Source: a virus
Lineage: Duplodnaviria > Heunggongvirae > Uroviricota > Caudoviricetes
Reading direction: 5' to 3' (one strand)
Virus record (IMG/VR): IMGVR_UViG_2609459799_000011
Length of the DNA stretch: 5,383 nucleotides
Shown: positions 216 to 5,288 of the stretch, in pieces
Position numbering within the stretch: the first letter of the stretch is position 1
How the letters are laid out: each line of letters opens with the position of its first letter
Translations under genes and position numbers: made by a program
The notes under the pieces: generated by a model
What the model was told of the DNA's origin: nothing
The model's input: the letters and a program-made list of their open reading frames with translations, nothing else
Databases searched by the model: none

Positions 216-953
216 TCATTCACTCTCTTTCAAACCAGTTTTAACTGTTTGGGGTTTTGGGTAAGGCTGGACTTTGAATAGCTTTATGTTGAGGCGTTTT
301 CTGGCCCTCTTGTTCAGAAACCGGATGTAACGAAACTGTCGGAACTTATGAACACTGGCTCTGTCGATATTAGCCCTCAGATGTTCACCTCGTTGTCCGC
401 CTCGTTTAATGGCATTCCTGCAAATCTCGTGATACCACTCGCCATCAAGTTCATAGAATGTTGATTCATGGCTGCCTACATAATCAAAATTGCTTGCCTG
501 ATACACGACACCAAGACAGCCACAACGCTCATCTGCAAACGACTGAACCCACTGTACCTGCGGATAAAGCTGTCTGATAAGTTTGAGTGCGTAACTGATG
601 GCCCTTGATTCGGAGTTTCTCGGCATACAGTCATGCAGCCATAACCGGTTAAGCTCCATATATTCGCGGTTCTGCGTACCGGTTACGACGCGCGCTCCAC
701 TGTTTGGATTAAGGGCATAACCCCATTGCATTACGCCAACCAGCTCTCGTTCTGAAAATATACCCAGATGAAGGTAGGAGTTATTTACGAAACGGTGGCT
801 GTAATGTTTATTGACGATGACCAGTCGGGCCAGCCAGCAACTTATTGTCTCAACCCGTAACTCACGGGAGCCATAACCGACGATATTGTCGTTATAGAGA
901 ATAAGTTCAGGCGTGCTGATGATACGGGATGTAACTTGTTTTCTGTTCCCCAC
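216..953 (-). CDS. mom: Mom-like DNA modification protein (adenine-modifying anti-restriction function of Mu-like phages), 245 aa, probable GTG start.
   Basis: 245-aa ORF starts with GTG (no in-frame ATG until about residue 75), overlaps the 3' end of the upstream zinc-finger com-like gene by 47 nt in another frame, and has AGGAA 8 nt upstream. Identity is from synteny with com and gin; Mom sequence itself is not recalled. Confidence 0.75.
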
Positions 954-1107: not shown

Positions 1108-1330
1108 GGCCGCATAACCTCCTGCTTTGTTGATGATATCTTTCTCGCCTAATCGATCGACAAAAACGATCGATTCGATGTGTTTAATTGATACAACAAA
1201 TAGATTGAAAAGTCATCAACAATGATTCAGGGAGGTGATTATTTACTAAAAGAAAACGAAGACTTAGGGTGTGAAAACGATCATAAAATGATCATTTTAT
1301 TGACTTTTTATCCAGTGAAGGTAGGATCGC
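1108..1330 (-). promoter_or_regulatory. GATC-rich upstream region of com-mom; candidate Dam-methylation-sensitive promoter control region.
   Basis: Five GATC sites in about 175 bp (1155, 1168, 1279, 1290, 1324), in palindromic contexts: TCGATCGA (1153-1160), CGATCGAT (1167-1174), and the 14-bp perfect palindrome AAAATGATCATTTT (1285-1298). No promoter hexamers could be assigned with confidence. Confidence 0.4.
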
Positions 1331-1367
1331 GCGCATATGTAGTATGTTTCAAATCAACAGGATACTA

Positions 1368-1406
1368 CATAAAAGGGAAACCCAGCATAGCTGGAACTAT
1401 GCTGGG
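1368..1406 (-). terminator. Candidate rho-independent terminator for leftward transcription.
   Basis: Perfect 10-bp inverted repeat CCCAGCATAG (1381-1390) / CTATGCTGGG (1397-1406) with a 6-nt loop; on the minus strand it is followed by UUUCCCUUUU. Confidence 0.45.
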
Positions 1407-1513
1407 TCAATCTGTAAAAACTTGCATCAATGCTTTACTTCGAGCTCGTGGCGTATCCTATGATATTCCCCGGTCTCCTGTAAAGCAGAGATATATCTGT
1501 TCAGGCAGGAAAA

Positions 1514-4703: not shown

Positions 4704-4735
4704 TTCAAAAAAGCGTCACGGTACTTTTGGTGACG
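4704..4735 (-). terminator. Weak candidate terminator overlapping the invertase stop codon.
   Basis: Minus strand: stem CGUCAC (plus 4730-4735) / GUGACG (plus 4714-4719) with a 10-nt loop, then C plus UUUUUU (plus A-run 4707-4712). The invertase stop codon lies within the 3' arm. Short stem and large loop suggest it is leaky. Confidence 0.35.
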
Positions 4736-5288
4736 GAGCTGGTGAGGCAGGAAAATAACGATAAAGGGTGGAAAGGCCAATATCAAATATCAGTGCGATT
4801 TGTTTACGGGACTCGCCATTAGCCAGCAAACGGGCGATTTGCTCCCGCTCTTTCTCTGTCAGTTTCTGAGGTCTGCCGCCATGACGCCCCTGAGCACGGG
4901 CAGCAGCAAGACCCGCGCGTGTACGTTCAATAATGAGTTCCCGCTCCATTTCCGCCAGCGCGCCCATTATATGGAAAAAGAAACGTCCCATGGGAGTGGA
5001 TGTATCAATATTGTCCGTAATGCTGCGGAAGTTAACGCCGCGTTGCCGGAGTTCTTCTGTTAAAAGGACAAGGTGCTGCATACTGCGTCCAAGGCGATCC
5101 AGTTTCCAGACCAGCAGGGTATCCCCTGGCCGGAGTCGCTTTAATGCGCGTTTAAGTCCGGGACGCTCCCTTGTCTTACCGCTTATTCTGTCTTCGAAAA
5201 ACAGCTCACATCCTGCACATTCCAGCGCATTTCTTTGTAGCGCCGTATTCTGGTCATTTGTTGACACCCTGATATACCCAATCAGCAT
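4716..5288 (-). CDS. gin: Serine DNA invertase of the Gin/Hin/Pin/Cin family, 190 aa.
   Basis: N-terminus MLIGYIRVSTNDQNT...LQRNAL, the stretch GDTLLVWKLDRLGRSM, MGRFFFHIMGALAEMERELIIERT and a C-terminal helix-turn-helix (LSTLYRY) closely match Gin and Hin as recalled. AAGGAA lies 5 nt upstream of the ATG. The symbol gin is chosen from the com-mom context. Confidence 0.9.
   Translation of the reverse strand: MLIGYIRVSTNDQNTALQRNALECAGCELFFEDRISGKTRERPGLKRALKRLRPGDTLLVWKLDRLGRSMQHLVLLTEELRQRGVNFRSITDNIDTSTPMGRFFFHIMGALAEMERELIIERTRAGLAAARAQGRHGGRPQKLTEKEREQIARLLANGESRKQIALIFDIGLSTLYRYFPASPAPSPKVP

Follow-up and report, generated by a model that had tools for sequence, protein, structure and literature searches.

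Five GATC sites upstream of com-mom in a Mu-like prophage of Escherichia coli: a predicted OxyR-type operator beside a separable cassette with a predicted divergent promoter

Introduction

Control of the mom operon of bacteriophage Mu by Dam methylation and the regulator OxyR is textbook knowledge, and a homologous element is therefore to be expected in a Mu-like prophage of pathogenic Escherichia coli, a host that is both dam+ and oxyR+. Here we describe the DNA upstream of the com and mom genes in one such prophage, represented by a stretch of 5,383 nucleotides from the IMG/VR virus record IMGVR_UViG_2609459799_000011 (Caudoviricetes). We refer to this whole stretch as the window; the element in question is a cluster of five GATC sites between its positions 1108 and 1330.

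Besides Mu mom, which is under the control of Dam and OxyR, the closest described systems are agn43 of E. coli, with a single repressing OxyR site, and the gtr operon of phage P22, where OxyR binds two overlapping combinations of half-sites (AB and BC), where methylated GATC pairs abolish binding, and where BC overlaps the promoter (PMC2909390). Reduced OxyR uses an extended binding mode (PMC2881104). Downstream of this control in Mu, the Com protein switches on translation of mom (PMC3299994). For the Sp18-like prophage lineage to which the window belongs, we found no description of mom regulation in the literature searched, nor was this locus reported in the methylome papers searched, including those on E. 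coli O111 and ST131.

Results

We think it rather probable, judging from the sequence, that the five GATC sites do not make up a single control region and are instead two separate elements lying side by side: an OxyR-type operator for com-mom, which contains the two sites closest to com, and a trio of sites at a predicted promoter that faces the other way. The window is found at 99.9% identity in E. coli chromosomes (strain NCCP15648, for example) and is the right end of a 39-kb Mu-like prophage inserted in a fimbrial usher gene. Because com and mom lie on the minus strand, the DNA from 1108 onward is the com upstream region. An earlier reading of the DNA, made from its letters without database searches (the sequence-only reading), had already placed the cluster upstream of com-mom, and the two gene assignments are borne out by the Pfam family Zn_ribbon_Com for com and by PF25680-bearing homologues for mom.

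The GATC sites start at 1155, 1168, 1279, 1290 and 1325, with spacings of 13 bp in the proximal pair, 11 bp in the distal pair and 35 bp to the last site. They account for 5 of the 12 sites in the window, and all lie within 221 bp upstream of com. Base composition (36% G+C) would lead one to expect 0.72 GATC in 1108-1330, and dinucleotide shuffling of this DNA gives five or more in 1.4% of cases. Shuffling the whole window yields a 175-bp span with at least five GATCs in 2.8% of cases, and placing the 12 sites at random does so in 0.3%; in the 39-kb prophage the cluster is the densest of that length, every other span having at most four. The sequence-only reading had held that five sites in about 175 bp are several-fold above chance, and had named a density no higher than that of comparable intergenic DNA as grounds for its refutation, which is not what is seen: GATC density is 8.7 per kb in the gap upstream of com against 1.5 in the other intergenic DNA of the prophage (and 2.8 in its coding DNA). 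The same reading had described the sites as falling in paired palindromes, which is true in part. TCGATCGA (1153-1160) is a true 8-bp palindrome, and GATCATAAAATGATCA (1279-1294) is an inverted repeat (GATCAT/ATGATC) as well as an 11-bp direct repeat, overlapped by the perfect 18-bp palindrome ATAAAATGATCATTTTAT (1283-1300). CGATCGAT (1167-1174) is not palindromic as a whole, CGATCG alone being so; with 1151-1159 as its partner it makes up the perfect 9-bp inverted repeat AATCGATCG-N7-CGATCGATT that fills 1151-1175.

The proximal pair is where the resemblance to known OxyR sites lies. We anchored mom loci on a GATC pair 13 bp apart and scored the half-site consensus ATAGnTnnnAnCTAT at every offset, taking both the consensus and the dimer-of-dimers binding model from the work on P22 gtr (PMC2909390). 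In the window this gives two OxyR-like half-sites (Table 1), half-site I starting 31 bp upstream of half-site II with a spacer of 16 bp, which together score 7+7 of 20, the same scores and the same register as in Mu. A half-site score of at least 7 is found at 0.2% of positions in the prophage and at 2% of those in the local AT-rich DNA. In 42 kb just three sites, that at 1156 among them, reach at least 14/20, and a two-part site of that quality arises in 1.7% of shuffled local segments. The two-part register, with starts 31-32 bp apart and a 13-bp GATC pair in one half, is common to the window, Mu, Chuche and nine further mom loci of our set (L006, L142, L091, L010, L012, L013, L016, L052 and L011), with scores mostly of 7-8/10 per half. 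No third half-site (at least 7/10, in register upstream of the operator) was found in the window.

Conservation follows the same outline. Among 13 unique variants of the E. coli lineage, none of the 25 columns of the block 1151-1175 varies and none of the 15 columns of half-site I, while the flanks do vary: in 5 of 11 columns of the spacer part 1176-1186, in 18 of the 49 that separate half-site II from the ATG, and in 9 of the 20 next to half-site I on its upstream side. The pair and the 25-bp block are also invariant in six variants derived by BLAST. Many of the variants had been retrieved by a pattern that required the GATC pair; half-site I was in no search pattern. A separate set of loci was collected solely by the similarity of their Mom proteins; of these, 8 of 15 from Enterobacterales have two GATCs 13 bp apart in the 250 nt upstream of mom, against none of 61 from other taxa (Desulfovibrionaceae, Alphaproteobacteria, Pseudomonas and others). 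In general, Enterobacterales encode Dam, and those other taxa would not be expected to methylate GATC. Sequence architecture, conservation and restriction to Enterobacterales are what we observe at the pair, and by homology with the described systems we conclude that 1151-1201 is probably a conserved OxyR-type operator, one that makes com-mom depend on Dam methylation as in Mu.

How such an operator would act depends on where com transcription starts. No strong sigma-70 promoter for com was found by promoter scan or by eye, and so we give two weak candidates (Table 1). If the hexamer TATCAT is the -10, it lies 16 nt from the proximal GATC, and the two GATCs stand at about -45 and -32. The alternative promoter, farther upstream, overlaps half-site I and would place the OxyR site at about -20 to +25, much as in agn43; its hexamers and their spacing are kept in L006 and L106, in which homology ends just upstream, and its weakness lies in a -10 without the final T and in elements that are not conserved in L091. 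Under either candidate, the predicted OxyR site would overlap the core com promoter. The distance from the operator to the com ATG is 48 nt here and also in Chuche, L091 and L010, against about 75 nt in Mu, L012, L025 and L052; L013 joins the longer class if its com start is taken as the ATG after the ribosome-binding site GGGGGAG, 21 nt downstream of the start chosen by our script. With a gap of 48 nt, a C-activator site of the Mu type cannot fit between operator and -10. The motif CCGCAAAnCCnGCCCC is common to the lys and I promoters of this prophage; upstream of com nothing like it is present, the motif itself being a candidate C box only. At L005 28852-28867 and 20665-20680 (minus strand), upstream of the lysozyme and head protease genes of this prophage, stands CCGCAAA(T/A)CC(T/G)GCCCC, a candidate box for its Mor/C-family late activator (WP_000852373) that is absent upstream of com. 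Similar to a part of the Mu I promoter, CACCTCCC (1236-1229) varies among variants, and we set it aside.

It is also possible, if rather unlikely, that the repeat at 1151-1175 is the operator of a phage regulator, such as a late activator of the C/Mor family, or a hairpin in the com leader RNA, and that its GATCs are incidental to ATCGATCG. The repeat is after all perfect, with 9-bp arms and a 7-nt loop, a lenient scan flags the repeat as terminator-like on the plus strand, it would be transcribed if com starts near 1181, and late promoters in this phage family need an activator (PMC4461284). But distant mom loci conserve the spacing of 13 bp between the GATCs and the ends ATCG...CGAT rather than an inverted repeat, and the corresponding Mu sequence ATCGGTAATACAGAT is none. 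The same block, moreover, occurs in agn43 and gtr, both of which are without a phage activator, the lys/I motif is missing upstream of com, and among the loci scanned the pair is confined to Enterobacterales.

The distal trio has a different character. Its sites are arranged around a predicted plus-strand promoter of the sigma-70 type (Table 1), whose hexamers (TTGACT and TA-N-GAT) are conserved, with a variable spacer, in the three diverged relatives L007, L091 and L149. GATC 1290, ending 7 nt before the -35, is lost nowhere, not even in these three, in which GATC 1279 is gone. GATC 1325 overlaps the 3' end of the TAGGAT -10; it is kept in the same three relatives and lost (as GATT) in L090, L094 and L097 with the -10 intact. 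We found no OxyR half-site or two-part match at the trio, and an OxyR site there was rejected on the grounds that there is no consensus match and that the pair is 11 rather than 13 bp apart. Homology of the com module ends near 1203-1216 in L006 and L106, which carry a different upstream cassette, and L135 is without about 1241-1630 (some 390 bp, the whole of the promoter and antisense cassette) and retains the com module. The L135 junction coincides with AATCACCT, an 8-bp direct repeat of which the window has one copy at about 1240 and another at about 1634, and this suggests that the gap is a deletion between these short repeats. Judged by these comparisons, the trio is outside the com-mom operator and belongs to a separable cassette. 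It may make the plus-strand promoter sensitive to Dam, or it may mark the operator of another regulator.

For the same reasons we consider it quite unlikely that all five GATCs form one extended Dam/OxyR region for com-mom, perhaps a two-site switch like that of gtr or pap. Their confinement to 221 bp upstream of com, as the densest cluster of the prophage, would fit such a region, as would the two GATC pairs of P22 gtr, which are 51 bp apart. The distal pair, however, has the wrong spacing and no half-site match, and at its place L006/L106 carry another cassette and L135 has a deletion, while all of them keep the com module. The distal sites also fall beside the -35 and on the -10 of a conserved promoter pointing away from com.

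Another model is that the close GATCs are SeqA-binding clusters, through which both divergent promoters would be transiently sequestered after replication, when the sites are hemimethylated. Pairs or larger groups of hemimethylated GATCs are bound by SeqA when about one to three helical turns separate them, the 13, 11 and 35 bp found here are spacings of a suitable kind, and a transposing phage replicates heavily. The model leaves unexplained a conserved half-site I that contains no GATC and the exact 13-bp register held in common with reported OxyR sites; it is compatible with OxyR control rather than exclusive of it, and as the explanation of the cluster we regard it as very unlikely. That the cluster is a chance product of AT-rich palindromic DNA with no methylation function is extremely unlikely, for although the window statistics are moderate (1.4-2.8% of shuffles reach five) and GATC 1279 and GATC 1325 have each been lost in some lineages, the proximal pair is invariant between variable flanks, the same geometry recurs at loci whose com is only 44-73% identical, the pair is present at 8/15 Enterobacterales loci against 0/61 others, and GATCs are about six times as dense as in other intergenic DNA of the prophage.

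Table 1. Features of the window discussed in the text, in order of position
Feature	Position	Strand	Basis or remark
mom, DNA-modification gene, 245 aa (amino acids)	216-953	-	open reading frame (ORF); homologues with PF25680 named Mom; annotated in 99.9%-identical E. coli genome
com, zinc-ribbon translational activator of mom, 66 aa	907-1107	-	Pfam Zn_ribbon_Com, E 2e-12
com Shine-Dalgarno sequence AGGAGG	1116-1121		
Candidate com -10, TATCAT	1138-1133	-	5/6 match to TATAAT; predicted start near 1126
25-bp block AATCGATCGACAAAAACGATCGATT with GATC 1155 and 1168, 13 bp apart	1151-1175	.	perfect 9-bp inverted repeat; holds half-site II
OxyR-like half-site II	1156-1170	.	7/10 against ATAGnTnnnAnCTAT, equal to Mu
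OxyR-like half-site I, ATTTGTTGTATCAAT in com sense, without GATC	1187-1201	.	7/10
Alternative com promoter, ATGACT (1216-1211), 17-bp spacer, TATCAA (1193-1188)	1188-1216	-	predicted start near 1181
Distal GATC pair 1279 and 1290, 11 bp apart, overlapping repeats	1279-1300	.	palindrome ATAAAATGATCATTTTAT abuts plus-strand -35
Sigma-70-type promoter, TTGACT (1300-1305), 16-bp spacer, TAGGAT (1322-1327)	1300-1328	+	promoter scan; predicted start near 1334
Structured leader of plus-strand cassette	1334-1513	+	hairpins 1336-1371 and 1380-1407
Candidate antisense RNA, about 75 nt	promoter TTTACA 1484-1479 / TAGGAT 1460-1455; hairpin and T-rich tail 1408-1369	-	promoter conserved; predicted RNA about 1448 to 1370
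Cargo ORF, 68 aa	1514-1720	+	no Pfam family; weak PHROG match
DUF6645 protein, 684 aa	2576-4630	-	
Gin-like recombinase (invertase)	4716-5288	-	

The surroundings of the cluster are those of a Mu-like right end with additions. All phage genes of the window are on the minus strand, in the order Gin-like recombinase, DUF6645, DUF1378, DUF826, a small hypothetical gene, com and mom, and the prophage terminates near 83-88. The com product is 44% identical to Mu Com by tblastn, and com overlaps mom by 47 nt. The genes for the DUF6645, DUF1378 and DUF826 proteins, which separate the Gin-like invertase from com-mom, add 3.6 kb of cargo. At 2488-2570 on the plus strand we noticed a weak resemblance in Rfam to Esr41, a small RNA of enterohaemorrhagic E. 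coli (22 bits, where the gathering score is 102; E 0.68); what matches is little more than a hairpin and T run of the terminator type, and the resemblance is probably not significant. Elsewhere in the prophage, RefSeq has a "tRNA-OTHER" feature at L005 21330-21409, in the head-gene region between the virion morphogenesis and head morphogenesis genes.

The accessory cassette that the plus-strand promoter would drive is a swappable one. Its leader segment, 1334-1513, is conserved and probably non-coding; it folds with z-scores of -4.7 and -3.4, and the hairpin at 1380-1407 shows compensatory changes in L129, L149 and L091. An Rfam search of the whole window at a permissive threshold returned no family in 1100-1700. 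The 68-aa ORF downstream of the leader is not annotated by the Prokaryotic Genome Annotation Pipeline (PGAP), and it overlaps the 3' end of a minus-strand ORF at 1683-1883. Between com and the DUF826 gene the small gene on the plus strand differs among prophages: the 68-aa ORF here, a gene for a 56-aa zinc-ribbon protein in the O157-type lineage (L009, about 1965-2137), one of 175 aa in strain M18 (L007, 1957-2484) and one of 86 aa in strain JE86 (L006, 1848-2108). The 68-aa gene and the 56-aa gene of the O157-type share their start position, after the same leader. By its sequence this slot looks like a hotspot of cargo exchange. A further plus-strand ORF, 1222-1521 (99 aa; annotated by PGAP as a truncated pseudogene, 1222-1497, and 154 aa long in O157), covers the distal GATCs and is probably not coding. 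We ruled it out as a gene because it has no Pfam family, because single-base length differences occur in it in L111, L122 and L008, and because L007 and L091 keep the promoter hexamers and hairpins and not the reading frame.

Discussion

If the proximal element works as its homologues in Mu mom, agn43 and P22 gtr do, a tetramer of reduced OxyR would bind 1156-1201 whenever GATC 1155 and GATC 1168 are unmethylated or hemimethylated, and the bound protein would block RNA polymerase at the adjacent com promoter, such that com-mom is repressed. Full methylation by Dam would keep OxyR off and allow com-mom to be transcribed, and Com would then activate translation of mom, as in Mu. The three distal GATCs would act, if at all, on the promoter of the divergent cassette. 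That OxyR binds, that methylation affects its binding and where transcription starts are what we infer here, from sequence and by homology. Since the predicted operator overlaps the core com promoter and no C site is detectable, ON/OFF control of mom in lysogens is conceivable. We nevertheless hold it quite improbable that mom is under heritable, methylation-dependent ON/OFF control in lysogens and not strictly late lytic. If it were so, a subpopulation of lysogens would modify its own DNA with Mom, and the divergent, GATC-bearing promoter of the cassette might be coupled to the same methylation state.

Several observations weigh against the picture of a conserved OxyR-type operator beside a separate, GATC-bearing promoter. 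The invariance of half-site II is partly circular, because the retrieval pattern demanded the GATC pair. Among the Enterobacterales mom loci, 7 of 15 are without the pair, and half-site scores of 7/10 are modest where both the consensus and the region are AT-rich. In the commonest lineage, that of the O157 type, CATCAA stands in place of the candidate -10 TATCAT, and in others TATCAA does, which makes the placing of the com promoter tentative. On the distal side, the loss of GATC 1279 and GATC 1325 in some lineages weakens the case for Dam control of the plus-strand promoter, and L135 looks like a secondary deletion rather than the ancestral state.

What the locus teaches beyond this prophage is, first, that GATCs crowded together may belong to neighbouring elements that have nothing to do with each other. 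What really marks such a switch is an operator in two parts, one half-site holding two GATCs 13 bp apart and the other starting 31-32 bp away; Mu mom, agn43 and P22 gtr have it in common, and it could serve to find switches of this kind by sequence alone. An OxyR-like signature of the form GATC-18-GATC-13-GATC is present in three other IMG/VR contigs (L109 605-627, L101 13135-13157 and L114 11445-11467), upstream of genes for a family-25 glycosyltransferase (lipopolysaccharide biosynthesis), a DUF4942 protein and a tail fibre, respectively. From such matches we find it tempting to speculate that Dam/OxyR switches on phage cargo may be more widespread than the known cases of gtr and mom. Three mom loci without a com gene, from Symbiopectobacterium and an Enterobacteriaceae metagenome-assembled genome, have a three-GATC OxyR-like site directly upstream of mom (L011 1387-1421, L014 1421-1468 and L016 1418-1465).

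Of the systems to which the locus can be compared, one concerns the distal trio. The transposase promoters of IS10, Tn5, Tn903 and IS3 have been reported to be controlled by hemimethylated GATC (PMC4659465). The trio is like the IS10 type in that GATC 1325 overlaps the -10 of the predicted promoter, and unlike it in that this promoter would serve a small accessory gene, not a transposase, and in that the GATC is lost in three variants.

With Mu mom, to whose Dam/OxyR control the sequence-only reading had likened the cluster as a whole, the likeness stands for the proximal pair, which has the 13-bp spacing, the flanks and the register of Mu GATC2/GATC3, and fails for the distal trio, a separate cassette with a divergent promoter and without an OxyR half-site. 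That reading had also expected a different arrangement of sites, and rightly so, there being two GATCs here against three in Mu and 48 against 75 nt to the com start codon. The Mu sites precede the com ATG by 109, 91 and 78 nt, with spacings of 18 and 13 bp, and com overlaps mom in Mu in the same way. In both phages the com-proximal half-site holds the GATC pair 13 bp apart and then CGATT, the flank GATCGATT is common to both, and the half-sites score 7+7 with starts 31 bp apart. The third GATC of Mu is at the 3' end of its half-site I, where this lineage has TATCAAT; half-site I of L010, L014 and L016 has a GATC at its 5' end, which makes the spacing 31 bp. In Mu the 75 nt between operator and ATG are filled by a promoter feature annotated in GenBank, whereas the operator here is 27 bp closer to com, and the C-activator site that Mu has between operator and -10 has no detectable counterpart, no C-site-like sequence having been found upstream of com. 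Finally, gin is directly upstream of com in Mu, whereas here 3.6 kb of cargo and the divergent cassette lie between.

The agn43 gene (flu) of E. coli K-12 has three GATCs, spaced 19 and 13 bp, where the window has two. Its two-part site, ATAGAATAAAACGAT-17-ATCGTTTATATCGAT, scores 16/20, and its half-site II block TATCGATCGTTTATATCGATCGATA, with GATC-II and GATC-III, is identical to window 1175-1151 at 21 of 25 positions. Both loci would have one two-part OxyR site, which in agn43 is a repressor site and, judged from the annotated start of the leader RNA isrC, spans the -10 and the early transcribed region. They differ in that agn43 is a chromosomal, phase-varying adhesin gene, and phase variation of mom is not known (PMC2909390).

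The layout here resembles that of P22 gtr, whose half-sites A (ATCGGTAACAACGAT), B (ATAGATAAAAACTAT) and C (ATCGCTTGTATCGAT) start at intervals of 32 bp; a 13-bp GATC pair is present in both A and C. The BC combination, like the operator here, consists of a half-site without GATC, a spacer (17 bp in gtr, 16 bp here) and a half-site with the 13-bp pair. From the last GATC of gtr (GATC4) to its -10, TACACT, there are 17 nt, against 16 nt to TATCAT here, and the pair stands at about -46/-33 in gtr against about -45/-32 here if TATCAT is the -10. In gtr, half-site A with its own GATC pair, 32 bp upstream, provides two alternative OxyR positions and with them heritable ON and OFF states; this third half-site is absent here, and the regulated genes and the type of phage are unlike. 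The short form raises the question of mom phase variation, which the gtr paper lists as unknown (PMC2909390). By its sequence, the operator geometry here would be that of the P22 gtr OxyR(BC) type rather than that of Mu, and the mechanism, by homology, the known one of Mu, agn43 and gtr in a short, gtr-like arrangement. Enterobacterial mom operons would then have at least two operator-promoter arrangements, the Mu-like one with room for the C activator and the short, gtr-like one described here.

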